Of a stretch of 64,000 bases of DNA, positions 335 through 63,189 are shown piece after piece. A program made the position numbers and the translations under genes. The stretch spans positions 3,716 through 67,715 of the IMG/VR virus record IMGVR_UViG_3300009873_001322, one strand, 5' to 3'. Origin of the DNA: a virus (lineage: Duplodnaviria; Caudoviricetes). The notes below the pieces were generated by a model, which did no database searches, was not told the DNA's origin, and saw nothing but the letters and a program-made list of their open reading frames with translations. The first letter of the stretch is position 1. Every line of letters starts with the position of its first letter.

Positions 335-1621
335 TCAAGAATTTTTTTCCATAAACTTACCAAGTATACCGACAACGTATTCTTGCACCGGATAGCTAAT
401 GTCCTGATGGCAGCCTATCGCAAATCCACGCTGCATAATGGTGTCGCAGTTTTCCAGCGATCCAGCTATCCGATGCTCATAATGCTTTAAAGCCGGATGC
501 CTGGCCATATTCCCAGCGATAATAGGGCGTGTCTCGACGCCGTTTTCCTGCAAGAATTTGGTTATCTCTTTTACTGAGAATTTGCACCGGTCGGTTAGGG
601 TGATGCAGAACCCAAACCAGCTTGGTTCGGAGTTTTCCTGTCTTTCCTGAAAACGGAAATAGTCGCTGTATTTTTCCAGTTCGACGCGGTATTTATTATA
701 CGCCCTCCGCCGCATCCTGATGAACTCTCCTAATTTGGGGAGTTGCTTCATGCCGATTACCGCCTGCACTTCGGTCGGTCGCAAATTGTAGCCAATATTG
801 ACAAAGATGAAGCGGGGGTCGATTCTAGGGTATTGCTTTACATAGTCTTCGTGGTCGTCTGCCTCCCTGCTCCATCCGTGCGCGCGGAGAATCCGTAACA
901 GATTTACGAGTTCATGATTCTTTACGAAGCACAGGCCGCCCTCAAAGGTGGTCATGTGATGGGAATAATAGAGACTCATGGTGCCGATGTCGCCGAACGT
1001 ACCGACTGGTTTGCTGCGGAACGTCGCACCCATGCTCTCGCATGTATCTTCAATTACCCACAAGCTATGATTTTGCGCCAGGTTCATAATGATGTCCATA
1101 TCGCAGGGATTTCCATAGACATGAACTACCATGATAGCGCGAGTTTTTTGGGTTATCGCCGCTTCGAGTTTTTTGTAATCGAAATTATAGGTCGCAAGGT
1201 CGCAATCCACAAATACGGGGATAAGCCCATGCTGGATGATAGGCCATACCGATGTCGCCCAGGATAGCGCCGGGACGATTACCTCATCACCTGGCTTCAG
1301 GTGATTCATCCATGCCGGATTTGAGAGCGCTGCGATAGCGAGCAGGTTAGCCGACGATCCGGAGTTGCACATCAGGCTGTGGGCGGAACCGAAATAATCC
1401 GCGCACTGGCTCTCGAATTCACGAACCTTAGCGCCCATCGTTACTTGCGTCGTGCGCATCTGCTCGCAGGCGGCTTGGATTTCTTCTTCGCCGAAAGTGG
1501 GCTCGTGTAGGCGTACTGTCATTATGGCATCTCTCTTATTCTTCGCTTCAGCTAGCGAACGAAGATACCCATCTGGATCATTTTTATATGCTGGAATGTT
1601 TTTAAGAGCTTCGATTACCAT
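335..1621 (-). CDS. colD: PLP-dependent GDP-4-keto-6-deoxy-sugar 3-dehydratase (ColD/RfbH-like, DegT/DnrJ family)
   Basis: NSGSSANLL, VPALSWAT, EDTCES motifs; SLYYSHHMTTFEGG has His at the position where aminotransferases have the Schiff-base Lys. Confidence 0.85.
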   Translation of the reverse strand: MVIEALKNIPAYKNDPDGYLRSLAEAKNKRDAIMTVRLHEPTFGEEEIQAACEQMRTTQVTMGAKVREFESQCADYFGSAHSLMCNSGSSANLLAIAALSNPAWMNHLKPGDEVIVPALSWATSVWPIIQHGLIPVFVDCDLATYNFDYKKLEAAITQKTRAIMVVHVYGNPCDMDIIMNLAQNHSLWVIEDTCESMGATFRSKPVGTFGDIGTMSLYYSHHMTTFEGGLCFVKNHELVNLLRILRAHGWSREADDHEDYVKQYPRIDPRFIFVNIGYNLRPTEVQAVIGMKQLPKLGEFIRMRRRAYNKYRVELEKYSDYFRFQERQENSEPSWFGFCITLTDRCKFSVKEITKFLQENGVETRPIIAGNMARHPALKHYEHRIAGSLENCDTIMQRGFAIGCHQDISYPVQEYVVGILGKFMEKNS

Positions 1622-1623
1622 AC

Positions 1624-2625
1624 CTACCTCGTCAAAAATTTATTTGTTTCCACACGATCTCGCCAGTACATCATCAGATCGTTCATCGTTTGTTCAAATG
1701 GTATCTGCGGTTTCCATCCGGTGTGCTTGGTGAACTTCTCACAGTTGGGCACTTGCAAATCAGCATCAATGGGTCGCAGACGATCCGGATCTTCCTCGAT
1801 AATGAACGCCAATGGAGATAGCGACATGAGATGCCTGAGTGTGCTCTCCACGGTGCAGGTATAATCCCCGCCGATATTATAGTACGCCCCCGGAATGGGA
1901 TTTACGGTAAGCAGCATATGATACGCGCGTACGGCATCGCGCGCGTCGGCATAGGTGCGCAGAGATTTAAGGTTTCCGACTTTAATAACGGCGTCGGTCT
2001 GTCCCGCTTCGGCCATAGCTATTTGTTTGGCGAAGCTGGATTCGTGAAAAACATCGCCCCGGCGCGGGCCGGTGTGGCTAAACATGCGCGTGGTTTGCAC
2101 GTTCATCCTATAAGCCTCGGCATAAAAGCGCCCGATTAGATCGGTTCCGACTTTGGAGATGGCGTAAGGGCTGGCTGGATTTATGGGAGCATCTTCATTG
2201 ATGGGTAAGATTTCTTTTGGCACTCTGCCAAATATTTCGCTACTTGAGCACACGTGTATAATTGATTCAGGAGCGTATTGGCGTAGAGCTTCAAGTATCC
2301 GTGATGTGCCGGAAATATTTGTCTCGTAGGTATCGAGCGGAGAGGTGAAGCTCGTTTTAGGATATGACTGTGCGGCGAGGTGAAATACATAATCAGGTAA
2401 GCATTCTCGTATGGCTTGATTGATTGAATCTGAATCTCGCAAGTCCCCATAGAGCAGCCTAACACGATCACTCGCGTTGATTCGTGGCAAAAGATGCTCG
2501 ATGTTATCGAGAGGGCTTCTCCATCTGATGAGTCCATAAATCTCCCAATCCGTGTTTTCCAAAAGGTAATCGGCTAAGTGGCTTCCGACGAAGCCGGTAA
2601 TTCCAGTGATGAGGCAGCGGGTCAT
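1624..2625 (-). CDS. wcbK: GDP-heptose (GDP-mannose-type) 4,6-dehydratase, WcbK/DmhA-like SDR
   Basis: GITGFVGSHL, HLAAQSYPKTSF, SPYAISK (YxxxK), LRPIDADLQVP; closely resembles Burkholderia WcbK as recalled; start MTRCL overlaps the upstream stop (ATGA). Confidence 0.85.
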   Translation of the reverse strand: MTRCLITGITGFVGSHLADYLLENTDWEIYGLIRWRSPLDNIEHLLPRINASDRVRLLYGDLRDSDSINQAIRECLPDYVFHLAAQSYPKTSFTSPLDTYETNISGTSRILEALRQYAPESIIHVCSSSEIFGRVPKEILPINEDAPINPASPYAISKVGTDLIGRFYAEAYRMNVQTTRMFSHTGPRRGDVFHESSFAKQIAMAEAGQTDAVIKVGNLKSLRTYADARDAVRAYHMLLTVNPIPGAYYNIGGDYTCTVESTLRHLMSLSPLAFIIEEDPDRLRPIDADLQVPNCEKFTKHTGWKPQIPFEQTMNDLMMYWRDRVETNKFLTR

Positions 2626-3200
2626 TCCACCCTCTCCTTCGCTTCCTCGTACCCTTGCGGCGTACCCATGTCTGTAAACCAATCTATAATATAAAATTTC
2701 TTCTGCATCGACATGACGAATGCTTCAAAGGAGAATGCGCCTTTTGGTGCCTTATTTAGCAATTCGGGATTGATGATATAAACACCGGCGCTGGTCATGC
2801 ACCCTTTATTTTGCGTCACAGCGACCGTCAGGGGCGGTATATGATTTGCCAGCATATCGTTGAAATCACAGTTCGCATAAGTATCGCCATTTAAAACAAG
2901 CACAGGCTCATTGCCTTCGACGCAGTTCTTGATAGCCCCGCCGGTTCCCAGCGGCTTGCTCTCAATTTTATATTTTAGCTTGTCTCCGAACCATTCCGTG
3001 AACACCTCGGCCTTATAATGAAGGGCGAGCGTAATATCGGTAATGCCCTGTTTTTTTAATTGCCTTATAATTATTTCCAGCCACGGTATATCTCTCGTGC
3101 CGGGGCGAAACATTCCCTTGACCATGCACTTGGGAATTTCTTCTCCGGTTATCGAGCGAAGCCTGGTGCCGAAGCCGCCCGCGAGAATGATACACTTCAT
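2622..3200 (-). CDS. hddC: Sugar-1-phosphate nucleotidyltransferase, HddC/WcbM-like (heptose-1-P guanylyltransferase)
   Basis: IILAGGFGTRL, PKCM, PLGTGGAI, VLNGDTY, DMGTP motifs; located between gmhA and the dehydratase. Confidence 0.8.
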   Translation of the reverse strand: MKCIILAGGFGTRLRSITGEEIPKCMVKGMFRPGTRDIPWLEIIIRQLKKQGITDITLALHYKAEVFTEWFGDKLKYKIESKPLGTGGAIKNCVEGNEPVLVLNGDTYANCDFNDMLANHIPPLTVAVTQNKGCMTSAGVYIINPELLNKAPKGAFSFEAFVMSMQKKFYIIDWFTDMGTPQGYEEAKERVE

Positions 3201-3700
3201 TGCGCGAATATCCTTCTCTCAATCATTCCACAGTAAATATGTCCCATCTTCATATGGTATTCCTGTATTTCCTGCGTGTTGTCGGTATCAGCTTGAAGTA
3301 ATATGTGGCACATTCTAACCATCTTCCCTCCGGTTTTCCCGGTTTTTCCGATTACAGTAATTCCACGCGCTGCTGCTATCTCGATTGCTTTGAGAATATT
3401 CGGAGAATTGCCAGATGTTGACATGGCGATAAGCACATCGCCGCGTTTTCCCAGTGCCGTGATTTGGCGGGAAAATACATGCTCAAACCCATAATCATTT
3501 CCGATGGCGGTGAGGATTGATGTGTCGGTTGTTAATGCTATTGCGGCTAGAGGAGGTCGATCAAAATTTAATTTTCCGACAAGTTCCGCCGCCAGATGTT
3601 GCGCATCTGCTGCACTTCCACCATTGCCACAAAATAAAATTTTTCCACCTGCGAGAAGCGAATTGATGCAAGTGTTGGCAATGATGTCGGGAGTTGTCAT
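3197..3700 (-). CDS. gmhA: Phosphoheptose (sedoheptulose-7-P) isomerase
   Basis: CGNGGSAADAQHLAAEL, NDYGFEHVFSRQ, STSGNSPN, IQEYH motifs. Confidence 0.95.
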   Translation of the reverse strand: MTTPDIIANTCINSLLAGGKILFCGNGGSAADAQHLAAELVGKLNFDRPPLAAIALTTDTSILTAIGNDYGFEHVFSRQITALGKRGDVLIAMSTSGNSPNILKAIEIAAARGITVIGKTGKTGGKMVRMCHILLQADTDNTQEIQEYHMKMGHIYCGMIERRIFAQ

Positions 3701-3834
3701 CTCTTATCCATATGCTCATCTATAATTCTACGAAGAACATCTGCGATGCTTGTGCCGAGATCATCTGCTTTATTTTTTAGATATTCCATTTGTCTCCTTG
3801 TGAGAGAAAATGTGCGACGTAAGAATGCTTCCAT
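3697..3834 (-). CDS. Ribbon-helix-helix DNA-binding protein, 45 aa (below the ORF-track cutoff)
   Basis: Hand translation MEAFLRRTFSLTRRQMEYLKNKADDLGTSIADVLRRIIDEHMDKR; AAGGA RBS; stop overlaps the gmhA ATG. Confidence 0.75.
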   Translation of the reverse strand: MEAFLRRTFSLTRRQMEYLKNKADDLGTSIADVLRRIIDEHMDKR

Positions 3835-3841
3835 GTGGTTC

Positions 3842-3870
3842 CTTTAAGCACCCAACGCACTGATTGTCAA
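3842..3870 (-). promoter_or_regulatory. Putative sigma70-type promoter for the heptose cassette
   Basis: Minus strand TTGACA-N17-TTAAAG upstream of the RHH gene; -10 match is weak. Confidence 0.4.
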
Positions 3871-3976
3871 ATGCTAATCACATTTATTCCTTTACTTAAT
3901 AATTATTTTATGCGATTATTCCGTCAACGTAAGCAAAAGACTTACGAAAAAGAATTCCTGTTAAGGGAACAGTTTG

Positions 3977-4828
3977 ATGGCCGAAGAGATTGCAAATTCA
4001 ACGCCTGCCGCTCCAGCGGCCTCATCTGCAACTCCCGTGGTTGAGGCCGCTCCTACCGTCGAAGCAACCCCCGTGGTTGAACCGACAGTTACCCCTGATC
4101 CTTCCAAACCAGAATCCACTCCTTCTGCTGAACCTGTAAAAACAGAGACAGAAGAACCAGCTAAACCAGAAGCGACTCCAGAGGCAAAAGCTGAAGAGAA
4201 AAAAGCCGATACGTTGCTCGGTGGAGAAAAAAAGCCGGAGGTCAAAGCCGATGACAAACCAGCGGAAGCCAAGCCGGAAGAAACTCCATCTGAAACCAAA
4301 GAACCAGAAATTAAACTTCCTGAGTATGAGCCTTTTAAACTTCCGGAAGATGTTCGGTTCGATCAGGAAAAGATGGGTGAGTTCACTAAAGCCCTCGCCG
4401 AATTTGAAACAACGACAAAAGCATCTCACGAAGAAGTCCAAAAATTCGGTCAGGGTTTAATTGACCGCCATATCGCCGAGGTCAACAGCACTCTGGAACG
4501 CTATACCCAATCGCTTACCGATGCGTGGAATAAACAGAAAACCGATTGGAAGGATGCTTTCATTAAAGATCCGGAGTTTGCCAACCGTACCGATACCGTG
4601 GTTAATGCCGCCATTGACGCTATCGGCATTTATGGTGGTGACTCAAAGCAGCAGCAGGAATTCCGTGAATTAATGGAATCCACTGGAATTGGAAATCATC
4701 CGGCAATGATTCGTCTGCTCTCTAATATCATGCTGGCAAAAGCCGAGCCGAAACCGCTTGCGGCACCGAAAATCGCGCCGAAGGTCGGTGGTAGTAAGCT
4801 AGAAAAAATGTACGGGAGGAAAGCATGA
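3977..4828 (+). CDS. Capsid scaffolding protein
   Basis: P/E/A-rich N-terminus, WKDAFIKDPEF and GIGNHPAMIRLL motifs typical of podovirus scaffolds; upstream of major capsid. Confidence 0.8.
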   Translation: MAEEIANSTPAAPAASSATPVVEAAPTVEATPVVEPTVTPDPSKPESTPSAEPVKTETEEPAKPEATPEAKAEEKKADTLLGGEKKPEVKADDKPAEAKPEETPSETKEPEIKLPEYEPFKLPEDVRFDQEKMGEFTKALAEFETTTKASHEEVQKFGQGLIDRHIAEVNSTLERYTQSLTDAWNKQKTDWKDAFIKDPEFANRTDTVVNAAIDAIGIYGGDSKQQQEFRELMESTGIGNHPAMIRLLSNIMLAKAEPKPLAAPKIAPKVGGSKLEKMYGRKA

Positions 4829-5478
4829 GTGCTGTTCTCCAGATGGTTGAGAAGACAAAGGTTTGTAGCAAATGCAGGCAGAGTAAGTATATTTTGGAAT
4901 TTGGTAAACATAAGATCGCATCGGATGGTCTTCGCCCTTCTTGTAATGCATGCCGTCATGCCGAATACAAAGCTAGGCGCGCTGCCGCCGGTAAGACTAG
5001 AGATGAGCGTCAAACCGTTGAGCTCATCGATGGCGGGCGAGTCTGCCTGACTTGTAACGAAGGGAAAATGTGGGCTGAATTTGCCAAAGATATTCGTGGC
5101 TATAATGAGAAAACGGCGACTTGCAAAACTTGTCGTAACGTGAAGTCACGGCAAATCTATCGCGATAATCCCGCTGTTCGCCGTAGTGGCATGATCAACC
5201 GCCCAGACAAACTAAAGCGGTTGTACGGGCTGACTTACGCAGCTTTGGTCGCAATGCTGGAAAAACAGTTCGGCCTATGTGCAAACGTTGGTTGCGGAAA
5301 ATCAATATCGTTAGATGTAAAAGGGCCTGTGAAAAGCCGGGCGGTCGTAGACCATTGTCATACTACTGGGAAAGTACGGGGGCTATTATGCACGAAATGC
5401 AATCTTGATTTAGGCATGATCGAGAACGGCATTCAACGTTTTAATGGTCTGATGGGTTATTTAGGCAAACACAACTAA
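4825..5478 (+). CDS. Endonuclease VII-like homing endonuclease
   Basis: VVDHCHTTGKVRGLLCTKCN motif; N-terminal CxxC pairs; inserted between scaffold and capsid genes. Confidence 0.85.
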   Translation: MSAVLQMVEKTKVCSKCRQSKYILEFGKHKIASDGLRPSCNACRHAEYKARRAAAGKTRDERQTVELIDGGRVCLTCNEGKMWAEFAKDIRGYNEKTATCKTCRNVKSRQIYRDNPAVRRSGMINRPDKLKRLYGLTYAALVAMLEKQFGLCANVGCGKSISLDVKGPVKSRAVVDHCHTTGKVRGLLCTKCNLDLGMIENGIQRFNGLMGYLGKHN

Positions 5479-5491
5479 GGAGCTTAATTAT

Positions 5492-6544
5492 ATGGTTTTT
5501 ACAGCGAACGTGCTTCCCAATCTGGTAGATTGGGCAAAGATGCAAGATCCCGATGGCGCAATTGCTGACATTGCGGAGCTCCTTGCTCAATGCAATGAGG
5601 TAATGAAAGATATTATCTGGCAGGAAGGCAATTTGCCCACCGGCCACCGCACCTCCATCCGCGTCGGTCTGCCGCAGGGCACATGGCGCTCGGCTAACGT
5701 CGGTGTTGCTTCTACGAAGCCGCTACAAGCCCAGTTCGATATCACCATTGGCGAACTTGTTTCCTACAGCCTCGTCGATAAATCCATCGCCGTATTGAAT
5801 GGCAACGTGGATAAATTCCGCTATTCCCAGGATATGGCGCAGGTGCAGGGATTGGGTCAACAGGTTGCGACCGCCATTTTCTACTCCAATGAAGCGGTCA
5901 ACCCGGCGCAATTCACCGGATTCTTCCCTTATTATAACTCCATCTCCACCGCTACCGCCCAGAGCGCTGTGAACGTCATCGACGGTGGCGGCACTGGTAG
6001 CTCGAATGCTTCCATTCTGCTCACCGGTTGGGGTGATGATACGACCTTCATGGTATTCCCGAAAGGCTCGACCGCTGGCCTAGTCTATGAAGACAAGGGC
6101 GATGTGCGCGCGCTCTATGACAGCAACGGCAATCAGTACGAAGGCTTCACCTCGTATTTCTGCTGGAAGCTGGGTCTTTGCCCAAAGAACTGGGAGTACA
6201 ACGTCCGTATCGCCAACCTGGATACCACCAGTGCTGGCTTGGCTGGCACATCGCCGCCTGATTTGTATGTGCTGATGTCGATGGCCGCTAACAAGCTGCC
6301 GACCGCCACGCGCCGCCTGTCCGGCATTACCGAAGTGGATTCTCCGACCGATCCTTCACCTGGTATTCTGCCCGCTTGGTATTGTAACCGTACTGTGCGT
6401 ACATACCTCGACATTCAGGCTATCCGCGATAAAAACGTCCTGATTTCGATGAACGATTACGCCGGTCAGCCGGTCATGCATTTCCGCGAGATACCGATTC
6501 GCGTGAACGACGTAATGACCAATACCGAAAGCACGTTAACCTAA
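5492..6544 (+). CDS. Major capsid protein (epsilon15 gp7/BPP-1 Bbp17-like, HK97 fold)
   Basis: DWAKMQDPDG, EGNLPTGH, GLPQGTWR, IRIANLD motifs; 350 aa. Confidence 0.9.
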   Translation: MVFTANVLPNLVDWAKMQDPDGAIADIAELLAQCNEVMKDIIWQEGNLPTGHRTSIRVGLPQGTWRSANVGVASTKPLQAQFDITIGELVSYSLVDKSIAVLNGNVDKFRYSQDMAQVQGLGQQVATAIFYSNEAVNPAQFTGFFPYYNSISTATAQSAVNVIDGGGTGSSNASILLTGWGDDTTFMVFPKGSTAGLVYEDKGDVRALYDSNGNQYEGFTSYFCWKLGLCPKNWEYNVRIANLDTTSAGLAGTSPPDLYVLMSMAANKLPTATRRLSGITEVDSPTDPSPGILPAWYCNRTVRTYLDIQAIRDKNVLISMNDYAGQPVMHFREIPIRVNDVMTNTESTLT

Positions 6545-6577
6545 TGTCTGCGACATTTTACATAAGGAGTTCTGAAC

Positions 6578-7108
6578 ATGGCATTTTATGATAATTCGCT
6601 TCTGCTGTCGAATGCGCAGTCGCTCGCAGGCGCGGCGACCACGGTAATCTCGACCAGCACCTATGATATTACCGGCGCTGGTTCCGGCACTGCTCCAAGC
6701 ATGGTTTGGGGCACGAGCACATTCCTTGCCGCAGATGTCATGGTCGGACGCCCGATGTACGCCTATTTCACGGTGACAACGGCGTTCTCCGCTACCACGG
6801 CTTTAACGGTGAGAATTCAAGCTGCCGCTCCAGCTACCGGCAACGTGCCTGGCACATGGGTTAATATTTACCAGAGCGCCGCCTTTACTGGAGCCACCGA
6901 CTTGGCTGCTGCCGCTCAGTTAGTAGTTCCCATCCCGCCCAAGCCGCTTCTTGGCAGCGCATTGCCGCGTTTCTATCGGTTTGCCTATGTAAATACCACG
7001 GCGGCTACTTTCTCCGCAGGTGCGTTTACTGCCGGTATCCTGCTGGATGCGCCGACGGGCATGGTCAGCACGCTGTATCCGAGCAACTTTGTTAGCGCCA
7101 GTGCATAA
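6578..7108 (+). CDS. Capsid cement/decoration protein (Bbp16-like)
   Basis: Beta-rich 176 aa immediately after the major capsid gene; PRFYRFAYV-like motif. Confidence 0.65.
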   Translation: MAFYDNSLLLSNAQSLAGAATTVISTSTYDITGAGSGTAPSMVWGTSTFLAADVMVGRPMYAYFTVTTAFSATTALTVRIQAAAPATGNVPGTWVNIYQSAAFTGATDLAAAAQLVVPIPPKPLLGSALPRFYRFAYVNTTAATFSAGAFTAGILLDAPTGMVSTLYPSNFVSASA

Positions 7109-7124
7109 CATTTAGGAGTAAATT

Positions 7125-7637
7125 ATGAGACATAATTTCCAAAGCGATCTCTCCCCGGTTCCGCCCAAGATGTATGCGGCACCGGAAATTCCGAAGAACG
7201 TCGCATGTTATCGGATCCTGCGTCCATGCTTCCTGGATGATATCATGTTTTATGAAGGTGATGTCGTCACTTGGTCGGAGGAACCCAATAGCGAGATGGA
7301 GCCTCTCAATGATTTAGCTCGCAAAGCTAGCGATGCGTTTTTCGATAAATGCGAAGAACTGGGCAAACTGGCAGCTAAAGAAAAAGGCAAATCGTTTGTT
7401 CCGGTTCAGCGCCCCTTCTCTGAGCGCCGTAGGAATAACACCGCTGAAACTCGCCGCGTGGAACTAGTCAAGGGCGATGGAGGCGTGCCGATTATGGGCG
7501 CGCGCAAAGGCCCAGGGCGTCCTCCCAAGGCACAGAAACTTGAGGTTTCCAAGATAGAGCAGAAGCCAGTTTCTGATCTTGCCCGTACCGGCAAGGCGGC
7601 TGCCAATGCAGTGAAAGATAATAAGATTGACAGTTAA
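7125..7637 (+). CDS. Hypothetical protein (head module)
   Basis: Strong GGAG RBS; 170 aa ORF in the operon. Confidence 0.7.
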   Translation: MRHNFQSDLSPVPPKMYAAPEIPKNVACYRILRPCFLDDIMFYEGDVVTWSEEPNSEMEPLNDLARKASDAFFDKCEELGKLAAKEKGKSFVPVQRPFSERRRNNTAETRRVELVKGDGGVPIMGARKGPGRPPKAQKLEVSKIEQKPVSDLARTGKAAANAVKDNKIDS

Positions 7638-7656
7638 TTTGGTGGATGCTGCTAAA

Positions 7657-7776
7657 ATGGAAGCTAAAAAAAATAAGTTCATCAAAAAAGCTATGGTTGC
7701 GGCAAAGAAAAAGCCGAAGAAAAAGCCGATGGCCGAGCGGATGAAGTCTATGTACGGTAAGAAAAATGGCTACTAA
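7657..7776 (+). CDS. Small Lys-rich protein, 39 aa
   Basis: Hand translation MEAKKNKFIKKAMVAAKKKPKKKPMAERMKSMYGKKNGY; fills the gap and overlaps the next start. Confidence 0.55.
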   Translation: MEAKKNKFIKKAMVAAKKKPKKKPMAERMKSMYGKKNGY

Positions 7777-8125
7777 GGAAGCTAGACACAAGCGCCTGTA
7801 TAAAGACTCCCCAAAGATGGAGAGGGGCGAAGACGGCAACATGAAGGCGGTTAAACCTTCTCAGAAAAAAGGTCCGACGGAGGCCGAAAAAGAATCGGAT
7901 GAGGTACAAGCTGGCACAGACGGCATGAAGGTAACTGAGGCCGAGAGTGCTCGTATCCAGGAAATAAAGGATATGCATTCTAGGCATCAGAAGGAGATGG
8001 AGGCAATCCATAAGCGGCATCAGAAAGAAGATGTGAAGAAATACGAGAAAACCGAGCATGACAGCGATAATAATGAATCGGCTGGTGCTGGTGAAAAAGA
8101 AATAAAAGAAGCAGAAAAGGAATAG
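7766..8125 (+). CDS. Charged hypothetical protein
   Basis: 119 aa ORF in the operon, K/E-rich. Confidence 0.65.
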   Translation: MATKEARHKRLYKDSPKMERGEDGNMKAVKPSQKKGPTEAEKESDEVQAGTDGMKVTEAESARIQEIKDMHSRHQKEMEAIHKRHQKEDVKKYEKTEHDSDNNESAGAGEKEIKEAEKE

Positions 8126-8128
8126 GTT

Positions 8129-8815: not shown

Positions 8816-8827
8816 GTCACTTTTTGC

Positions 8828-8856
8828 TTGACGGTTCTTAAAAGCACCCATAGTAA
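8828..8856 (+). promoter_or_regulatory. Sigma70-type promoter giving a near-leaderless transcript of the first glycosyltransferase
   Basis: TTGACG-N17-TAGTAA; GTG start ~7 nt downstream; no Shine-Dalgarno. Confidence 0.5.
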
Positions 8857-8862
8857 TGGTGT

Positions 8863-9738: not shown

Positions 9739-9753
9739 AAAAGGAAAAAAATT

Positions 9754-11149: not shown

Positions 11150-11186
11150 GTCGCCAAGCTCTGCACCAAGACAGGGAGAAGACAAA

Positions 11187-53540: not shown

Positions 53541-53669
53541 TCCGCGAGCAGGCGACATTGCGGCTGCCGGGCAGCACGGAGATACCGCTCATCGCATTCG
53601 ACGACTGGCGGTTCTGGGTATTGCTTGCGGTTATCATCGGCGCGGCGTTCGCGTGGAAGAGGATGTGAA

Positions 53670-55140: not shown

Positions 55141-55947
55141 ATGTTTGATTATAACGAAGAAAAATTTGATGATGCTGCAAGGGCGAGATTTTCTTCTCGC
55201 TATACCGTGGATGATAATACGGGGTGCTGGATTTGGCGCGGCCCATTAGATAATGATGGATATGGGCAAATTACTATACGAGGAGTGGGGTATAGACCGC
55301 ATCGTGTTTCGTACATGATGTATAATGGTGATATCACAAGCGGATTATATGTTTTACACAAATGTGATAGGCCATCATGCGTCAATCCATCCCATTTGTT
55401 TTTAGGAACTCAGGCGGAAAATGTACTTGATTGTATGAAGAAAGGTAGAAGATCGGTGGGATTCTATCACTATCGCTCTAAACTTGATGGGAATAGTATT
55501 AATATCTTAGTGGATCTTTTAAAACGCGGCTATCATTATACATATATAGCAAAAAAATTGAATATGAGTTCCTCAAGTATAAAGCACATTGCTGCTGGCT
55601 ATTCGAGAAAGGATTTAGGAACCGTTGCTACGGATGCTGATAAAAAGCCAAGCCATCTAAAGGATGACCCTGAGCGTTTGCTTTATTGGACACGTTCCAA
55701 CAGCGGATGGAAACTGATTAAGAGACAGCCGGAAAATCATCGCCGCCGCATTGCTACCGCTGCGATTGCGGAGAAAAATAAAAATAAAAAATGTATTGTT
55801 TGTGGCAATCCTTATATTTCTCTAAGGCCGTCTAAATATTGTTCAATGGCTTGCAGCGCAAAGGGTTTTAGAAAAAATAACCCAAATTATCATAAAAAAT
55901 ATAAGAAAAAATACATAAAGAAATCCCTTACGGAGAGAAGAAAATGA
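55141..55947 (+). CDS. HNH homing endonuclease (HNH_3)
   Basis: GCWIWRG, PHRVSY, VLHKCDRPSCVNPSHLFLGTQAENV motifs. Confidence 0.9.
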   Translation: MFDYNEEKFDDAARARFSSRYTVDDNTGCWIWRGPLDNDGYGQITIRGVGYRPHRVSYMMYNGDITSGLYVLHKCDRPSCVNPSHLFLGTQAENVLDCMKKGRRSVGFYHYRSKLDGNSINILVDLLKRGYHYTYIAKKLNMSSSSIKHIAAGYSRKDLGTVATDADKKPSHLKDDPERLLYWTRSNSGWKLIKRQPENHRRRIATAAIAEKNKNKKCIVCGNPYISLRPSKYCSMACSAKGFRKNNPNYHKKYKKKYIKKSLTERRK

Positions 55948-56156
55948 ACGTCATAGACCTGATAAATCACTTGTCTTCCTATGCCGCGAAATCACCCGAC
56001 AATGGAAAAGCAGAGGTGAGAATCCAATTCTTCGATGATGTTTGCTACGGCATTCTCGGCGCTAACGATGCGCGCGGTATGCCGGGGCAGCACTTTTTGA
56101 TAATGGTTCCCGATATTAAAGAGCGAATCGGCGTTCGGGAGTTGAAGATACAATGA
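55944..56156 (+). CDS. Hypothetical protein
   Basis: ATGA-coupled ORF. Confidence 0.55.
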   Translation: MNVIDLINHLSSYAAKSPDNGKAEVRIQFFDDVCYGILGANDARGMPGQHFLIMVPDIKERIGVRELKIQ

Positions 56157-57085
56157 GTAGAGTTTTAGTTCTTGGAGCCACTGGGTTCATCGGGAGAAAT
56201 ATGACCAAGCATTTCGCCGCGCTTGGGCACGAAGTAATGGCAGCGTTGCATACTGGTAAGGACGATAATTTTCCGAATGTTCACAGGTGGTGGGGTGATC
56301 TTAGGGATCCGATTGCAGTAAATTCTGTAGTTGATGGATGGCGTCCAGATATCATTATTCACGCAGCCGCAACAACTTCCGGCTCTAGGGATATTTGCAA
56401 TAATCCCGCACTGCACGTTACCGATAATGCCGTGATGGGTTCTTACATTTTTCGTGCGGCTGTCGAGGCGAAGGTTAAGCATGTAGTGTTTTTCTCGTGC
56501 AGCACTATGTTCAGTAACGGAGAGATCACGGAGGAATCACCTATCGATATTCATCCAAAATATTTTGGCGTAGCGCATACGAAACTTTATCTTGAGAAGC
56601 TGTGCGAATTTTATTCCGGTGTCGGAACAACTAAATTTACGGCAATACGGCATAGTAATATTTACGGCTCCCATGATAAGTTCGACTTGGAGCGTTCGCA
56701 TTTCTTTGGGGCTACGGTGACGAAGGTGATGCGGGCCGATGACAAAATAACCATCTGGGGCACTGGCGAAGAAGCGCGCGACCTCCTTCATGTCGATGAT
56801 CTATGTCGGTTTGTGGAGTTGGTCATCGAGAAGCAGCCGGAGAAGTTTGGGCTTTATAACTGCGGATACGGCATTGCCTTTAAAGTAAAAGACGTTGTGC
56901 AGAAGATAATCGATGCGTCCGGGAAAAGTCTTGTCATCGAGCATGACTTATCTGCGCCTTCCATTTCGACATCCTTAAGCCTCAATTTTGATAAGGCGAG
57001 AAAGGAACTGGGATGGAACCCTATGGTAACACTGACGGATGGGATTAAGATGACGCTGGAGTGGTGGAAAAATAATGCAGGTTGA
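56153..57085 (+). CDS. NAD(P)-dependent nucleotide-sugar epimerase/reductase (GDP-fucose synthase-like SDR)
   Basis: GATGFIG, IHAAA, FFSCSTMF, YFGVAHTK, RHSNIYGSHD, WGTGEEARDLLHVDD motifs. Confidence 0.85.
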   Translation: MSRVLVLGATGFIGRNMTKHFAALGHEVMAALHTGKDDNFPNVHRWWGDLRDPIAVNSVVDGWRPDIIIHAAATTSGSRDICNNPALHVTDNAVMGSYIFRAAVEAKVKHVVFFSCSTMFSNGEITEESPIDIHPKYFGVAHTKLYLEKLCEFYSGVGTTKFTAIRHSNIYGSHDKFDLERSHFFGATVTKVMRADDKITIWGTGEEARDLLHVDDLCRFVELVIEKQPEKFGLYNCGYGIAFKVKDVVQKIIDASGKSLVIEHDLSAPSISTSLSLNFDKARKELGWNPMVTLTDGIKMTLEWWKNNAG

Positions 57086-57254
57086 TTTTAAATTCTCTCC
57101 GTTGCAGAAGGTAAAAATCCATGCCTATGATTTGCACTATGATGGGTTGGTTATTAAGTGTGAATATGATGGTCATACAAAAAACTACGACGTAGAATTC
57201 GCATCAGAAGGAAAAATCCAACGTCAAGTATTTTTTGAGGATCAATTAGCATGA
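57075..57254 (+). CDS. Hypothetical protein, 59 aa
   Basis: Hand-translated; overlaps both flanking genes. Confidence 0.5.
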   Translation: MQVDFKFSPLQKVKIHAYDLHYDGLVIKCEYDGHTKNYDVEFASEGKIQRQVFFEDQLA

Positions 57255-58231
57255 GTTTTTATCGCGGAAAAAAATGCTTAGTCACTGGCGGCACCGGCCT
57301 GATTGGCCGCCCATTGGTTGAAATGCTCTCCGATGCTGGGGCTATCGTCACGGTGGTTTCTCTGGATTCTATTCCAAAGGTTCAAAAAGGGTGCTCGACT
57401 TTTTTACAGCTCGATCTGAGAGATAGAGAAAATTGTCGCATTGCTTGCGAGGGACAGGATATAATTTTTCAACTTGCCGGAATAAAGGGATCTCCTGTTG
57501 CCACAAAAACAAAACCGGCATCGTTCTTCGTTCCGACACTTCAATTCGGCGTCAATATGATGGAGGCTGCTCGCCTCGCGGGTGTTGAATGGTATCTGAA
57601 CACAAGCTCAATCGGCGTGTATGGGCCAGCGGAAGTGTTTTACGAAGATGCGGTATGGGACGATAAGCCGTCCACTCATGATAAGTTCGCCGGTTGGGCG
57701 AAGCGCATCGGAGAGATGCAGGCGGAAGCCTATAAAATCGAATATGGGTGGGATAGATGTTCCATTGTGCGCCCAGCCAATGTTTACGGGCCTTATGATT
57801 CCTTCGCTAATGACAGCGCAATGGTCATACCGTCGCTTATAAAACGGGCGATCAATGGAGAAAATCCGTTAAAAGCATGGGGTGACGGCAGCCCGATTCG
57901 GGATTTCATCCACGCAAGGGACGTTGCGCGCGGAATGATGATGGTTGTCGAGAATAAAGTGCAGGAACCCGTCAATTTAGGCTCAGGAATAGGGGTTTCC
58001 ATCAAGGAATTAGCCGAAACTATAGCGGAATTGACCGGGATTACCGTTGAATGGGACATAAACAAGCCAAATGGCGATAAAAAACGCCTGATGGACATGA
58101 AAAGAGCCTCGGAAATAGGTTTTAAACCGGAGATTTCACTAAAAGACGGTCTAAGACAGACAATAGAGTGGTATAGGACTAATAAAAACCAAGACACCTT
58201 GCGGTATAACGTATTTTCTGATAGGATTTAA
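57251..58231 (+). CDS. NAD(P)-dependent nucleotide-sugar epimerase/reductase (GDP-fucose synthase-like SDR)
   Basis: GGTGLIG, FQLAG, SSIGVY, FAGWAKR, RPANVYGPYD, WGDGSPIRDFIHARD motifs. Confidence 0.85.
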   Translation: MSFYRGKKCLVTGGTGLIGRPLVEMLSDAGAIVTVVSLDSIPKVQKGCSTFLQLDLRDRENCRIACEGQDIIFQLAGIKGSPVATKTKPASFFVPTLQFGVNMMEAARLAGVEWYLNTSSIGVYGPAEVFYEDAVWDDKPSTHDKFAGWAKRIGEMQAEAYKIEYGWDRCSIVRPANVYGPYDSFANDSAMVIPSLIKRAINGENPLKAWGDGSPIRDFIHARDVARGMMMVVENKVQEPVNLGSGIGVSIKELAETIAELTGITVEWDINKPNGDKKRLMDMKRASEIGFKPEISLKDGLRQTIEWYRTNKNQDTLRYNVFSDRI

Positions 58232-58696: not shown

Positions 58697-59458
58697 GTGA
58701 GCTCATGTGGCGTTTCTAATCAAGAACGGAGTTCACCCGTCATGACTAAGACAATCATATCAAAGCTACAAGCACAAGAGCAAGGACTAAAACGGTATTT
58801 TACCGGGAAGCCTTGCAAACACGGTCATATCTCAGAGCGTTACATTTATGGTTATTGTGTCGAGTGTGACAATGTACGCATTAAAAAAGAGCGCGAAATA
58901 AGGAACCATAGGCAACGTAAATACAGGGAAAAAGACAAAGATAGATATAAGGCATACAGAATTAAGCATAGGGAGAGCGGCTTAATAGCCACAAAAAGAT
59001 GGAGGGCAAATAATCTATTGGCAGTCAGGGAGAAAAAGAGGATATGGAGGGCTAATAATCCATCAGCGGTGAAGGAGCAAAAGAGAAGAGACTACGAAAA
59101 GAATAAGGATAAACGTATTTCCTCAGTAAATAAATGGGCGTCTAAAAATAAAGATAAATGCATTGGTTACAGAAGAAATACTAAGGCGAGGAGAAGAAAA
59201 GCGAGTGGTAAGCATACCCAAGATGATGTTTTGTTGATATTAAAGTTACAAAATAATAAATGCGTTTATTGCAGAAGAAAAATATCCTTTGACCCAAATG
59301 CCGAGGAATTAAAGGTTCATGTAGACCATATAATGCCTATAGCTCTTGGTGGTTCAAATAATAAAAGTAACTTGCAATGTTTATGCCCATCCTGTAATAT
59401 CTCAAAGAATGCGACTGACCCCATAATCTGGGCTCGACGCATGGGCAATCTATTGTAG
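58697..59458 (+). CDS. HNH endonuclease
   Basis: YFTGKPCKHGH, CVYC, VDHIMPIALGGSNNKSNLQCLCPSCN motifs. Confidence 0.9.
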   Translation: MSSCGVSNQERSSPVMTKTIISKLQAQEQGLKRYFTGKPCKHGHISERYIYGYCVECDNVRIKKEREIRNHRQRKYREKDKDRYKAYRIKHRESGLIATKRWRANNLLAVREKKRIWRANNPSAVKEQKRRDYEKNKDKRISSVNKWASKNKDKCIGYRRNTKARRRKASGKHTQDDVLLILKLQNNKCVYCRRKISFDPNAEELKVHVDHIMPIALGGSNNKSNLQCLCPSCNISKNATDPIIWARRMGNLL

Positions 59459-59853: not shown

Positions 59854-61686
59854 ATGGCTAAAAAGGCCACAAAAGAACAGGAATCAACCGCCGTATATGA
59901 GCAGGCAAGCGCAACGCTGTTAAGCCGACAGCCATCAATGGCGAAGAAAGACCGATCAAAAACCGATCCGAAATGGAATACGCTTCGTGGGCATTTAGAA
60001 GCACGGCTTAATTCCCTCTACACATGGCGGCAAAGTTGGTGGACGCAGAACTGGTCTGACTTGACACAATTCTTGTTGCCGCGCCGTTCGATATGGCTAA
60101 CGCAAAGTGCTGGCGGCACACCGACCCCGAATAACATGACTCGCGGCAGGGAAATCAACCAAAGCATCGTTGATCCGACGGGAACATTCGCCGTCCGTGT
60201 ATGCGCCGCTGGGTTGATGTCTGGCCTTGCTTCCCCATCCCGCCCATGGTTTAAGATTACGCCAAAGATTAAGAATTTTGAGCCTGACGATGCCGGGAAA
60301 CTATGGATGGATGAGGTTGAGAATAGGATTTATACCGTTCTCGCTAGTTCAAATTTTTACAATTGCTTTGCGCAGGAATGCGAGGATCTGGTCGTGTTCG
60401 GGAGCGCCCCGACGATTATATACGAAGATGAGGCAGACCTTATTCGTCTTTATAATCCATGCATCGGAGAATATTTCTTTGCTTCCGGCGCTACTTTGCG
60501 CGTTGATGGATTGTATCGCCGCTTCCTGATGACTATCGCGCAGATCGTGGATTTCTTCGGACTCGATAATTGCCCGCCTGAAGTTCAAAAGTTATGGCAA
60601 GCGAAAGGTAGTTCTTTGCAAATAGAACGTATCATCGCTCATAGCATCGAGCCTAACTTCGGCATCGGCAAAGACAACGCGGGTAAGGTTCCAGGGAATT
60701 TTACCTGGCGAGAAGTTTATTGGGTGTATGGTGGCGCGAGCGATTATCCGCTTTCGATGCGCGGATTTATGGATCAGCCGTTCACGGCTTCAAGGTGGGC
60801 AACGCAGAGCAATGACGCCTATGGCCGTTCACCCGGAATGGATGTGCTCCCCGATGTGATGCAGCTTCAGGTGGAAACCATGCGTAAGGCCGAGGCGCTT
60901 GAGAAGCAGGTAAGGCCGCCGCTTCTGGCCGACTCCCAGCTTAAAAACCAGCCAGCTTCGACGCTGCCCGGCGAAGTAACGTATGTGCAGAATCTCAATG
61001 CCACAAGTGGGATGCGTTCGATTTACAATGTCAATCCCGATATACGCGGCATGATGGAGGATATTAAGGAAATTCAGCAGCGCATCAAAGTTGGCCTATT
61101 CAACGATTTGTTCAATATTTTCTCTGAAATACCGCAGGGGAAAATGACCGCTTATGAAACAGCTCAAAGAGTGCAGGAGCGGTTGCAGCTTGTCGGGCCA
61201 ATTGTGGACAATCTTCTCGGAGAGTCCCTGAAGCCCAAGCTGACATATATCTATAAAGTTCTCACGCGCCGCAACATGCTTCCACCGCCGCCTGATTCCA
61301 TGAAGGGCATACCGCTAGATTTGACGTTCGTATCGCTGCTGGCGCTGGCTCAGAAAGCTGCCTCTACCGGCGGTATCGAGCGCCTTGCTTCCTTCGTCGG
61401 CGGCCTGCAAGCCGTGGATCCAAACGCCATCGACAAGTTCAACGTCGATCAGGCTATCGATGAGATGAATATGCTTCTTGGCAACCCTCAGAAGATATTG
61501 AGGGACGACGAGGATGTGGCCAAAATCCGCGAACAGCGCGCTAAAATCCAGGAACAAGCCAATGCGTCTCAAATGGCAGCGCAGGATATGAACGCCATTA
61601 AGAGCGGTGCGCAAAGCGCAGAGGTATTGGCCAACACCACCGTTGGCTCCGGCAAGTCGGCGCTTGACCAGCTATTCGGGCTTTGA
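59854..61686 (+). CDS. Portal (head-tail connector) protein
   Basis: GLMSGLASPSRPWF, YGRSPGMDVLPD, MTAYE..QRVQE..LGP-like motif; 610 aa. Confidence 0.95.
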   Translation: MAKKATKEQESTAVYEQASATLLSRQPSMAKKDRSKTDPKWNTLRGHLEARLNSLYTWRQSWWTQNWSDLTQFLLPRRSIWLTQSAGGTPTPNNMTRGREINQSIVDPTGTFAVRVCAAGLMSGLASPSRPWFKITPKIKNFEPDDAGKLWMDEVENRIYTVLASSNFYNCFAQECEDLVVFGSAPTIIYEDEADLIRLYNPCIGEYFFASGATLRVDGLYRRFLMTIAQIVDFFGLDNCPPEVQKLWQAKGSSLQIERIIAHSIEPNFGIGKDNAGKVPGNFTWREVYWVYGGASDYPLSMRGFMDQPFTASRWATQSNDAYGRSPGMDVLPDVMQLQVETMRKAEALEKQVRPPLLADSQLKNQPASTLPGEVTYVQNLNATSGMRSIYNVNPDIRGMMEDIKEIQQRIKVGLFNDLFNIFSEIPQGKMTAYETAQRVQERLQLVGPIVDNLLGESLKPKLTYIYKVLTRRNMLPPPPDSMKGIPLDLTFVSLLALAQKAASTGGIERLASFVGGLQAVDPNAIDKFNVDQAIDEMNMLLGNPQKILRDDEDVAKIREQRAKIQEQANASQMAAQDMNAIKSGAQSAEVLANTTVGSGKSALDQLFGL

Positions 61687-61698
61687 TAAAGTGACAAG

Positions 61699-62934
61699 AT
61701 GGATTTGACTTCTGACGAAGCCGTAGAATTAGAAAACATCTACTCTGGCGGGTTGATGCGCAAGATAACGCCACCACATATTGAGCAGCAGTTTTTAGAA
61801 AGCGGTTATGTTCGTCGAGCTGTAGGCGGGTTGATGCCGACAAAGGCCGGGCATGAGGCGCTTATGAATTGGAAAAATAAGGGCGAGAAATGACACCAGA
61901 GCAATGCGCAAGGGAATGGTGGGATTTAACTCTATTTTGTAAAGATGAAAACAATCGAGAGAATGACCCAGAATCTATAAGATTAGATTTGCCGGTTAAA
62001 ACCAGATTAAAAAAAGATGCGAAAGATATTTACAAATCTAGGTCTTACGCGATTTCTCAGGCTCAAAATAAGTTTAATCCTCAACAGTGGGGAGAGTATA
62101 GCCTTCATCATTCGAGAATAAGCGATGAAATATATGGGAAATTAGTTAGGCCGCACGAAAAAGGTGGTACATTATGGCAGAAGATTAAATGCCGTCTTCC
62201 TATGAAGTATGTGCTTAAATTATCAAAAATTGGGTTATGAATGATAAAAAAAACCACGCCGCAACTTCTAAATGATTTCATTCAGGGATTGAATGAGATG
62301 ATCGGTGCGTCAGGGGTGATGATTCACCACCACCAAGATTTGCGCTGGCACATTATCCGGGAGAACCTTGAGTTTGTGAAAAACGCTGTTGTCCGGTTAG
62401 CGGTGAACCCTCTTACCGCTCCAAAAGTGACGAAGCACGAGAAGAAAGCACAGATATTATTGTCATGACCACCCCGCTTATCTTTAATGATGGATATATG
62501 AAGTGTCGCCTCGTGAGGAAAGACCGAGATTGGTATATTGGCGAGTGGAAATATGTAAATGACTTTGATGAAAATGGTAAACCGAACACTACTGGCTGCC
62601 TTACTGAGAAAGACACCAGTGCTAAAAATATATGGTTCCCTTGGATAGCTGGTACTGCGGAGTATCTTGGACTAACTATCCAAGAGAAAGAATGGGCAAA
62701 ATGAACGACATCACCGAAAAACAAACGATGGAATATTTTTTGCAGGGCGCAAAAAAAGCCAAGGCTGCTGCAAGAGAACTTGCGTCACAGAATCAGACGA
62801 ACGCATGGACTCGCGTTCGCAGCCAACTTGGGCAACTGGAGAAGCACGCGCAGAAACTCTTTACCGATAAGCCGCAGACGCGGTTGCAGACGTTGGATCT
62901 CGCTAATAAGATAGTCGGCGAGCAGGTGCATTAA
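61699..62934 (+). other. Five small coupled hypothetical ORFs (61699-61893, 61890-62240, 62241-62468, 62465-62704, 62701-62934)
   Basis: ATGA couplings after the portal gene. Confidence 0.55.
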
Positions 62935-63189
62935 TTACTTGTGGTAAAGCTCGACCCACTCTACCAGAAGCGTGCTCCCATCCCTCTCCATCGCCGCCTT
63001 GTATTCCGGCACAATCATCTCATGTGAAGTAAGGCGCACTACTTTCACCGTGGAAAGCATCGCCTCGATGGCATCGGTGTAATCGCCGATGTGTTGCGGG
63101 CCTGGGTCTAACGGGTTCGTTGTGGCAATAGACGTGCGGATGAGGACGCGCGGGCGGTAGTCGCTGAATAGGGGAATTTTGTCTAGGTG
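62935..63189 (-). pseudogene. 5'-truncated ThDP-dependent enzyme subunit (transketolase pyrimidine-binding / PDH E1-beta-like), 84 aa
   Basis: Hand translation HLDKIPLFSDYRPRVLIRTSIATTNPLDPGPQHIGDYTDAIEAMLSTVKVVRL...STLLVEW; in-frame TAA directly upstream, no start codon. Confidence 0.7.

Follow-up and report, generated by a model that had tools for sequence, protein, structure and literature searches.

Candidate virion glycosylation in an activated-sludge podovirus: a predicted deoxy-heptose pathway and glycosyltransferases among the head genes

Sugar-nucleotide genes of the phage

The DNA analyzed here is a window of 64,000 nucleotides, bases 3716-67715 and so the last 64 kb of the 67,715-bp IMG/VR virus record IMGVR_UViG_3300009873_001322, which comes from an activated-sludge metagenome and is rated by CheckV as 97% complete and linear. 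The record represents a tailed phage of ~66 kb with a genome of the podovirus type, and its genes include about ten for the predicted synthesis of a rare activated deoxy-heptose together with three soluble sugar transferases (glycosyltransferases, GTs) among the head genes. An earlier note on this DNA had described sugar genes at three positions of the morphogenesis arm, and every gene that it named was found at its place: a heptose block in the portal-scaffold interval, two short-chain dehydrogenase/reductase (SDR) genes between the large terminase gene (TerL) and the portal gene, and three GT genes before the capsid staple gene. Positions are those of the window unless given for the record, whose first 3715 bases, which precede the window, hold the GHMP kinase and the thiamine diphosphate (ThDP) enzyme alpha subunit of the same block.

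The gene at 335-1621 (minus strand) encodes a DegT-fold enzyme (DegT_DnrJ_EryC1, E 3e-91) dependent on pyridoxal or pyridoxamine phosphate (PLP/PMP). Its best matches in the PDB are E1 (3bcx, E 2e-84) and ColD (2gms, E 1e-82). In the alignment, the phage motif 'yshh' falls on 'pahh' of E1 (His220) and 'yshh' of ColD (His188), placing a His where aminotransferases have the Schiff-base Lys; the E1 mutant H220K (3bb8) has Lys at that position. The Cys-rich [2Fe-2S] insert of E1 (3bcx) is a gap in the phage enzyme, as it is in ColD. Because His replaces Lys and the Cys-rich insert is missing, the enzyme is assigned, as a prediction, to the ColD type of nucleoside diphosphate (NDP)-4-keto-6-deoxy-sugar 3-dehydratases and not to the E1 subtype. 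No E3 reductase partner for it was seen among the annotated open reading frames (ORFs).

The adjoining gene at 1624-2682 (minus strand) encodes a predicted NDP-heptose 4,6-dehydratase, with a probable start at the ATG at 2625 that gives 333 amino acids (aa); the sequence around 2622-2625 reads ATGA. The protein matches the guanosine diphosphate (GDP)-D-glycero-D-manno-heptose 4,6-dehydratase of Campylobacter jejuni (PDB 7US5) with E 2e-97 and 329 bits over residues 21-347, compared to at best 137 bits (~1e-39) for GDP-mannose dehydratases, and it scores 164 bits on the gmd model TIGR01472 (cut-off 415). The predicted activity is of the heptose type, of the DmhA/WcbK/Cj1427-neighbour kind, over the GDP-mannose type. 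Upstream on the same strand lie the HddC-like gene at 2622-3200 (NTP_transferase, E 5e-13), which would encode a sugar-1-phosphate nucleotidyltransferase at the family level with a putative HddC specificity, and the gene for a GmhA-like sedoheptulose-7-phosphate isomerase at 3197-3700 (SIS_2, E 2e-26). The GmhA match to PRK13936 begins at model position 34 of 197, so that the N-terminal ~30 residues of the longer models are missing, and the same short length is kept in two relatives, L005 and L006. At the head of the minus-strand cassette stands an ORF of 45 aa (3697-3834), a putative small regulator, which has a counterpart at the same place in L005 and L006 with 54-60% identity; its paralogue at 166-375 has a weak match to RHH_1 (E 0.0024).

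The HddA-like GHMP kinase (record 1628-2674, outside the window; GHMP_kinases_N E 6e-14, GHMP_kinases_C E 4e-10) is kept in the cassettes of L005, L006, and a third locus, L013. The ThDP alpha subunit, an E1-alpha-like (E1_dh) protein of 218 aa, also lies outside the window, in the upstream 3.7 kb of the record. The gene for the beta subunit, the pyrimidine-binding domain, has its 3′ part at window 62935-63191 (minus strand) and its 5′ part at record 704-1031, and joining record 66906 to 704 yields an ORF of 173 aa directly after ThDP alpha. This protein aligns end to end with its homologues in L006 (82%), L005 (78%), and L013 (66%), the last of which matches Transket_pyr with E 7e-4, under the Pfam cut-off. 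The earlier note had listed GmhA, HddC, a dehydratase, and a 3-dehydratase with a fragment of a ThDP enzyme; the four enzymes are real, and the supposed fragment is the 3′ end of an intact 173-aa beta gene that the ends of the record cut in two. An ORF of 207 aa (record 3040-3663, minus strand), located between the genes for the kinase and the 3-dehydratase, matches only phrog_4652, of unknown function, with E 1e-19. The cassettes of L005, L006, and L013 lack this ORF, which could be the missing phosphatase or unrelated cargo.

The junction that restores the beta gene is present in the source reads. Two identical copies of a 92-bp direct repeat, at record 612-703 and 66815-66906 (the latter being window 63100-63191), bracket 66.2 kb of phage DNA, and a contig of the source run, at a depth of 418, crosses the 66906/704 junction exactly. 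Depth in that run is ~420x over the phage and ~3x beyond the repeat, in the bacterial flank, and the circularised form dominates the reads. Since the contig spans the junction and the flank is so shallow, the phage is a 66.2-kb circle, concatemer, or terminally repeated unit. The placement of the heptose block between portal and scaffold on the circular map is borne out by this contig as well as by L005 and L006, in which the block is contiguous between these two genes.

The two remaining sugar genes stand between TerL and portal. SDR1 at 56153-57085 (plus strand; Epimerase, E 7e-41) is an Fcl/GalE-like extended SDR, an epimerase/reductase, with GDP-L-fucose synthase as its best NCBIfam model (113 bits, cut-off 500). 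SDR2 at 57251-58231 (plus strand; Epimerase, E 4e-43) is an Fcl-like extended SDR, a putative 4-reductase and possibly also an epimerase, which scores 146 bits on that model (cut-off 500) and matches Fcl (PDB 7ll6/8du0) with E 4e-37. The best PDB matches of both are Fcl or GalE, in agreement with the two Fcl-like SDRs described earlier at this position. The pair is flanked by HNH genes at 55141-55947 and 58697-59458.

Head-module genes and glycosyltransferases

The structural set of the phage combines a T4-type large terminase, a T7-type portal, an epsilon15 gp7-type capsid, a Bbp16-like decoration protein, a gp10-like staple, and T7 gp13/gp14-like internal proteins. On the plus strand, the large terminase lies at 53625-55109 (Terminase_6N E 5e-27, Terminase_6C E 2e-23) and the portal at 59854-61686 (Head-tail_con, E 6e-123), and across the junction follow the major capsid protein at 5492-6544 (PF20911 GP7, E 6e-103) and the decoration protein at 6578-7108, whose Bbp16 match (E 3e-5, 24.6 bits) is under the 27.1-bit cut-off. 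A Ser/Thr-rich, fibre-like protein of 228 aa is encoded at 8129-8815 (plus strand) and has a C-terminal K1-lyase_C domain (E 2e-6; 28.4 bits, cut-off 27); Ser and Thr make up 25% of its residues. Most relatives, whether they have GTs or not, encode a homologue (109-588 aa) directly upstream of the staple. In the window, the three GT genes lie between the gene for the 228-aa protein and that for the eps15 gp10-like staple at 11148-11495 (plus strand; PF21628 Gp10-like, E 2e-12).

All three GTs are encoded on the plus strand. For GT1 (8863-9738), the AlphaFold2 model has a mean predicted local distance difference test (pLDDT) score of 95.2, and its top structural matches (Foldseek, VIA-align) are catalytic domains of ppGalNAc-T enzymes, with Z 17.4 and a root-mean-square deviation of 3.0 over 223 residues to GalNAc-T4. 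Heparosan synthase and SpsA tie with ppGalNAc-T within 1 Z, and the fold is therefore uninformative on the acceptor. For GT3 (10509-11135), phrog_14945 'glycosyltransferase' matches with E 2e-35, the model has a pLDDT of 95.7, and Foldseek finds B4GALNT1, the GDP-fucose-using WrtF, and EXTL2 at E ~1e-6 (7e-7 to B4GALNT1 and WrtF). Acidic motifs are SSD in GT1 and ADD in GT3. On the predicted structures, GT1 and GT3 are GT-A glycosyltransferases at the fold level. GT2 (9754-10512), the weakest of the three, is a probable GT-A enzyme: its matches to Anp1 (E 7e-5) and Glycos_transf_2 (E 0.004) are both under the cut-off, Anp1 matches four of 11 family members, the motifs WIDADS (DxD-like) and GEDEY are conserved in the family, and its ESM Atlas clusters, mostly viral, are automatically named glycosyltransferase. 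The description of three soluble GT-A transferases is thus upheld by predicted fold for GT1 and GT3 and is tentative for GT2, where it draws on sub-threshold matches and motifs.

On the Kyte-Doolittle scale, no 19-mer of any GT exceeds a hydrophobicity of 1.3. The predicted proteins of the record have at most three hydrophobic segments each, and no Wzx-, Wzy-, or Gtr-like protein, polymerase, or flippase is visible among them, in keeping with the earlier statement that the GTs are without transmembrane segments and that no Gtr flippase or translocase is present. Searches of PDB sequences with GT1, GT2, and GT3 and with GT2 and GT3 profiles returned nothing meaningful, and tblastn of GT1 against cultured phages gave no match. 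In metagenomes, 152 GT1 homologues were found, many with a PF00535 match, and more than 150 of them sit on contigs of 57-69 kb. A tandem duplication as the origin of GT1-3 was considered and rejected, hhalign giving small, non-significant alignments, and the three are treated as separate families.

The staple gene continues the frame of GT3 after a TAA stop and 12 nt (window 11133-11150), and in one 341-aa database protein (P0185), encoded on a 1.9-kb NCBI contig, GT3 and the staple are fused. This may reflect read-through, a true fusion, or an error of sequencing or gene calling, and it carries no weight in what follows.

Linkage of sugar genes and glycosyltransferases in relatives

Co-occurrence was followed in IMG/VR and JGI loci. 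About 20 family members share the order portal, p101, scaffold, capsid, decoration, p170, p119, p228, staple, tail, to which a sub-lineage has added both the sugar genes and the GTs as accessory insertions. The closest relative, with a capsid 91% identical, keeps the split layout: its SDR1 and SDR2 homologues precede the portal (that of SDR2 is 76% identical and in the same TerL-portal slot), and its heptose block separates the portal from the scaffold. A contig of the same sample carries GT2′-GT1-GT2-GT3 before the staple. In L145, GT1 is directly followed by the 4,6-dehydratase; in L143, GT1-GT2-GT2′ adjoin HddC; and in L144, GT1 occupies the portal-scaffold slot.

The complete set is contiguous in L013/L014, a 66-kb phage whose structural genes have no tblastn match to proteins of the window. 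The co-directional order there is a GT, a 250-aa protein, GT1, 4,6-dehydratase, 3-dehydratase, nucleotidyltransferase, ThDP alpha, ThDP beta, SDR1, kinase, and SDR2, followed by a 253-aa ORF and a TerL-like gene. Identities to L013 are 51% for GT1, 72% for the 4,6-dehydratase, 66% for the 3-dehydratase, 51% for SDR1, 62% for the kinase, and 57% for SDR2. The GTs are always inside or at the head of the packaging/head module in both unrelated phage families. A more distant version of the cassette occurs in 14 IMG/VR contigs of 17-163 kb (L097-L110) from phages dissimilar to this one and lacking GT1-3 homologues; it comprises a DegT-like gene (32-36%), an SDR2-like gene (52%), a second SDR, a 4,6-dehydratase (64%), ThDP alpha (41-46%), and ThDP beta.

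The linkage of GT1 to sugar genes is directly observed, and the co-occurrence of sugar genes and GTs across relatives, on which the earlier note had staked its proposal, holds in several independent arrangements. Given that the genes are contiguous in L013/L014, that GTs adjoin sugar genes in L145 and L143, and that the closest relative keeps the split layout, the three positions are best described, on gene order, as one functional unit split over three slots.

Relatives without the heptose block show other contents in the same slots. L009 carries a methyltransferase, a TylF-like (macrocin O-methyltransferase family) sugar gene, and a GT3-like gene between TerL and portal (L009 3643-5685), and a relative with the TylF-like and GT3-like genes in this slot also has a GT2-like gene after the 228-aa protein. 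The TerL-portal slot repeatedly holds glycan-related cargo.

Proposed pathway to the sugar donor

The gene families at the locus support a predicted route, encoded by the phage itself, to an activated heptose of the 3,6-dideoxy type. GmhA would isomerise sedoheptulose-7-phosphate, the GHMP kinase would phosphorylate the product at C1, and the 7-phosphate would be removed by a phosphatase, presumably the GmhB of the host. The HddC-like enzyme would then form an NDP-heptose, probably the GDP form, which the heptose-type 4,6-dehydratase and the ColD-type 3-dehydratase would convert in turn to an NDP-4-keto-3,6-dideoxy-heptose. The minimal split ThDP enzyme (alpha 218 aa, beta 173 aa) would probably add a two-carbon branch at the keto carbon, and the two Fcl-like SDRs would epimerise and/or reduce the product. 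This is consistent with past work on C. jejuni, in which a GDP-3,6-dideoxy-heptose pathway with the same first two steps is biochemically established (PMC10440746), and with pyruvate dehydrogenase (PDH)-E1-like alpha/beta pairs that put a pyruvate-derived C2 branch at C4 of NDP-4-keto deoxysugars (PMC4802897). A branched product is suggested because a split ThDP pair resembling these PDH-E1-like pairs stands beside the dehydratases in every version of the cassette. The three soluble, cytoplasmic GT-A transferases would take the phage donor, and possibly host donors too, and during lytic growth would build a short glycan on one or more structural proteins of the head, the nearest candidates being the 228-aa fibre-like protein, the decoration protein, and the staple. 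Gene identities at the family or fold level, the His-for-Lys signature, and the intact circular junction are observed directly; from these we infer the order of the steps, the nucleotide carrier, the branching step, the stereochemistry, and above all the acceptor.

Several results weigh against the route as drawn. GmhA scores 194.1 bits on TIGR00441, below the cut-off of 209.45, although the match covers model positions 4-154 of 154. The best NCBIfam model for the HddC-like protein, D-glycero-D-manno-heptose 1-phosphate guanosyltransferase, gives 101 bits with a cut-off of 300, and only residues 1-117 match, on model positions 1-116 of 221. A search for GmhB found none, which is why a host phosphatase is assumed. 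In place of HddC, L013 has a small cytidylyltransferase-like gene, and the 3-dehydratase is equally near, with ~280 bits to both, to E1, which uses a cytidine diphosphate (CDP) sugar, and to the GDP-using ColD. With the HddC match this far under its cut-off, these two observations make the nucleotide carrier uncertain.

Target of the glycan

Given the donor route and the position of the GTs, virion glycosylation is in our view the best reading of the locus, and we hold it tentatively. With more reserve still, we consider it possible that a widespread family of uncultured ~62-69-kb podoviruses coats its capsid with a glycan holding a phage-made, C-branched 3,6-dideoxy-heptose, and that the ten genes for it are a portable cassette passed between unrelated families. 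A virion target is favored by the presence of GTs in the head module of two unrelated families and by GT2- and GT3-like genes and an O-methyltransferase in the same slots without heptose genes. The lack of a match to PF00589 or PF00239 (integrase/recombinase) in a six-frame search of the record, together with a circular form at ~420x beside a flank at ~3x, points to use in lytic growth. Glycans on the capsids of Che8 and Rita are described in PMC11256854, in the passage that cites Freeman 2023. The premise of the earlier note that mycobacteriophage GTs lie near structural genes does not hold in general, as the GTs of the F1-cluster phage Maravista are near the 3′ end of the genome (PMC11256854).

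Other observations count against a virion target. The portal-scaffold, TerL-portal, and pre-staple slots are general hot spots that also receive homing endonucleases, which makes position by itself a weak argument. The heptose block runs antisense to the late genes, and in L015 and L016 the 10 kb around the GT1 homologue hold no heptose genes. A search of relatives for an acceptor signature, such as a Ser/Thr-rich tail that varies together with the GTs, found none: the capsid, decoration, and 228-aa proteins have similar Ser/Thr content and similar C-termini whether or not GTs are encoded, and most GT-less relatives keep a member of the 228-aa family. Because it is the same there, the Ser/Thr richness of the 228-aa protein is no acceptor signature. 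The earlier proposal that the phage makes its own deoxy-heptose donor and glycosylates Ser/Thr-rich virion proteins thus retains its first half, as a route predicted from gene families, and loses the link between Ser/Thr richness and the GTs. The virion target is proposed here from the genes of a phage that has no isolate.

It is possible, though in our estimate less likely than a virion target, that the genes modify a surface glycan of the host (the lipopolysaccharide (LPS) core, the O-antigen, or intermediates of the capsule) at the cytoplasmic face of the membrane, for export by host machinery; we regard this as a live alternative. The effect would be a block to superinfection or a failure of progeny to re-adsorb to debris, an idea long proposed for the LPS genes of cyanophages. 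Many GTs of O-antigen and capsule assembly are likewise soluble GT-A enzymes. The nearest characterized homologues of the sugar enzymes all function in the synthesis of bacterial capsules or O-antigens, GT1 matches TarP, WrtF, and polysaccharide synthases as well as protein GTs, a comparable set of heptose and GT genes stands at a distance from any obvious capsid context in the cultured cyanophage Bellamy, and the orientation of the heptose block opposite to the late genes would also fit. What speaks for the virion instead is that two unrelated phage families both carry the GT genes within the head operon, and that neither an integrase or recombinase nor a flippase, polymerase, ligase, Gtr protein, or priming transferase was found in the record. 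A heptose 4,6-dehydratase is also rare in the presumed host family, occurring in one of 81 genomes of the Nitrosomonas family, a host link that is itself doubtful. The particular form of this reading raised in the earlier note, an epsilon15-style conversion, is unsupported: neither an integrase or recombinase nor membrane-bound modification proteins were found in the record. Soluble GTs might nevertheless act on lipid-linked intermediates of the host.

We regard as improbable an acceptor of another kind, namely phage DNA with a hypermodified base, a host protein, or a small molecule. The phage encodes a C5-cytosine DNA methylase (38210-39307; the Pfam match is partial, residues 127-258 only), GT3 also resembles the nucleoside glycosyltransferase AvpGT and has a weak partial match to phrog_2675, annotated as a DNA methyltransferase, and virus GTs that glycosylate DNA are known (Pyle 2024, as cited in PMC12619734). 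Against DNA as acceptor, the GTs are 27 kb from the methylase and inside the head operon, and a six-frame search of the whole record found neither a thymidylate-synthase-like hydroxymethylase (PF00303) nor TET/JBP (PF12851), so that no route to 5-hydroxymethylcytosine or 5-hydroxymethyluracil is visible. Least probable of all is a chance accumulation of independent cargo in insertion hot spots of the structural arm, with no joint work of the three gene groups. In its favor are the HNH and EndoVII homing endonucleases in these slots, other and unrelated genes there in most relatives, and the solitary GT1 genes of L015 and L016; against it are the contiguity of all parts in L013/L014, the adjacency of GTs to sugar genes in L145 and L143, and the split layout kept by the closest relative.

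Relation to known systems

The closest known route is that of the C. jejuni HS:5/HS:11 capsules (Ghosh, Xiang & Raushel 2023, PMC10440746), which likewise has a heptose 4,6-dehydratase, a PLP C3-dehydratase, and an SDR-type reduction and is fed by a GmhA/kinase/HddC-type route. It is encoded in a capsule locus, whereas the genes described here are in a phage genome with two Fcl-like SDRs where no cupin-type C5 or C3 epimerase is seen, without GmhB, with a putative carrier, and with an added split ThDP enzyme that suggests a branched product. The phage 3-dehydratase shares the DegT fold and the His for the Schiff-base Lys with ColD (colitose) and E1 (CDP-ascarylose); it differs from E1 in the absence of the Cys-rich iron-sulfur insert, and its heptose substrate is judged from context. 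Separate E1_dh and Transket_pyr subunits are also found in Plm8/Plm9 (paulomycin) and AviB1/AviB2 (avilamycin) (PMC4802897), which belong to actinomycete antibiotics and not to phages or heptoses; the phage pair, with its putative activity, stands beside 4,6- and 3-dehydratases and has much shorter subunits (218 and 173 aa). YerE of yersiniose is a functional analogue of the split enzyme.

Among viruses, the Synechococcus phage Bellamy (NC_047838, genes 211-228) has an annotated phosphoheptose isomerase, kinase, nucleotidyltransferase, two SDRs, and GTs, one SDR being 51% identical to the phage 4,6-dehydratase. Bellamy differs as a 205-kb cyanomyovirus with the block outside the head operon and no 3-dehydratase or ThDP genes annotated. 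For the glycosylation of their capsids, chlorovirus PBCV-1 and giant viruses encode GMD/GMER-type sugar-nucleotide enzymes and soluble cytoplasmic GT-A transferases; these are eukaryotic viruses with other sugars and no sequence relation beyond the fold. In O-antigen conversion by epsilon15, P22, and SfV, a phage also changes a glycan by its own enzymes, and the capsid described here is epsilon15-like; the proteins at work there are prophage-expressed membrane proteins (Gtr, polymerase, inhibitor), whereas an integrase and membrane enzymes were not found here.

To our knowledge, phage virion glycosylation has been shown so far only in a few mycobacteriophages, where it shields the capsid from antibodies. 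As reported in PMC11256854 from Freeman et al. 2023, phages Che8, Corndog, and Myrna have glycosylated virions and encode GTs of their own, and the outcome proposed for the present phage, capsid proteins coated with glycan, is of this kind. The present phage differs from them in a probably Gram-negative host, an eps15-capsid/T7-portal podovirus architecture, a rare donor of its own, and GTs in the head operon, and its likeness to virion glycosylation of the Che8 type is drawn by gene comparison. Precedents exist separately for phage nucleotide-sugar genes, phage GTs, and capsid glycosylation; our literature search found none for a portable deoxy-heptose and ThDP cassette coupled to GT-A enzymes in a podovirus head operon. 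If the reading of a capsid coated with a phage-made branched heptose is true, phages of (probably) Gram-negative bacteria would have their first virion glycosylation system, which would also be the first in which a virus supplies a rare donor sugar by a portable ten-gene cassette that moves between unrelated phage families. With the virion as the target, phage glycan coats would be far more general than thought, which bears on adsorption, on evasion of defence, and on the behavior of sludge and soil phages. Whatever the target, the cassette brings together in little space enzymes for deoxy-heptoses and possibly for branched ones, a minimal split ThDP enzyme among them, and its genes illustrate how a 'distributed' gene set becomes recognizable as one unit when it is found contiguous elsewhere.

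Record ends and other features of the window

The last ~800 bases of the window (63192-64000; strand not assigned) are foreign DNA outside the sugar system and carry a Nitrosomonas-like DUF2334 gene (DUF2334, E 9e-35) whose protein has 95% amino-acid identity to Nitrosomonas sp. Nm84; nucleotide homology to Nitrosomonas ends at the edge of the 92-bp repeat. This right flank has 46% guanine-cytosine (GC) content. The left flank (record 1-611) has 64% GC and a 5′-truncated CoxE-type VWA gene, which is absent from five Nitrosomonas genomes searched, where the neighbor of DUF2334 is another gene. An integrated prophage in Nitrosomonas, suggested by the repeat and the 95% flank, was not adopted because of the GC content and gene of the left flank, the failure to find an integrase, and the depth of ~3x in the flank against ~420x. 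Three origins of this arrangement are conceivable: integration of a prophage, chimerism in the assembly, and attachment of foreign DNA to the physical ends of a genome with a 92-bp terminal repeat. For the Nitrosomonas flank an artefact of assembly is probable, and the link to Nitrosomonas is a lead and not a host assignment.

The phage is distant from those in culture. No cultured phage has a capsid protein more than 42% identical to its own, and megablast of 25 kb against cultured phages gave no nucleotide match. The replication arm encodes a helicase and a primase in addition to the C5 methylase, and searches of PHROGs and Pfam gave no match for a 384-aa early protein and several other ORFs. 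In window 1-12400, promoter-like sites number 20 compared to 19.1 in shuffled sequence, and terminator-like sites 17 compared to 14.2, no excess in either case; the promoters noted earlier do exist as matches and carry no statistical weight at this frequency.

Four homing-type nuclease genes, one EndoVII and three HNH, one of the latter with an AP2 domain, are spread among the structural and sugar genes, two flanking the SDR pair as given above and the others at 4825-5478 and 23542-24063. The position of EndoVII-like genes in the head module varies among relatives, and such nucleases may drive the mobility of the cassette. In L009, the terminase ORF (L009 33-3419) is 1128 aa long, and its similarity to TerL falls into two blocks with ~950 bases between them, a pattern suggestive of an intein or of some other in-frame insertion.

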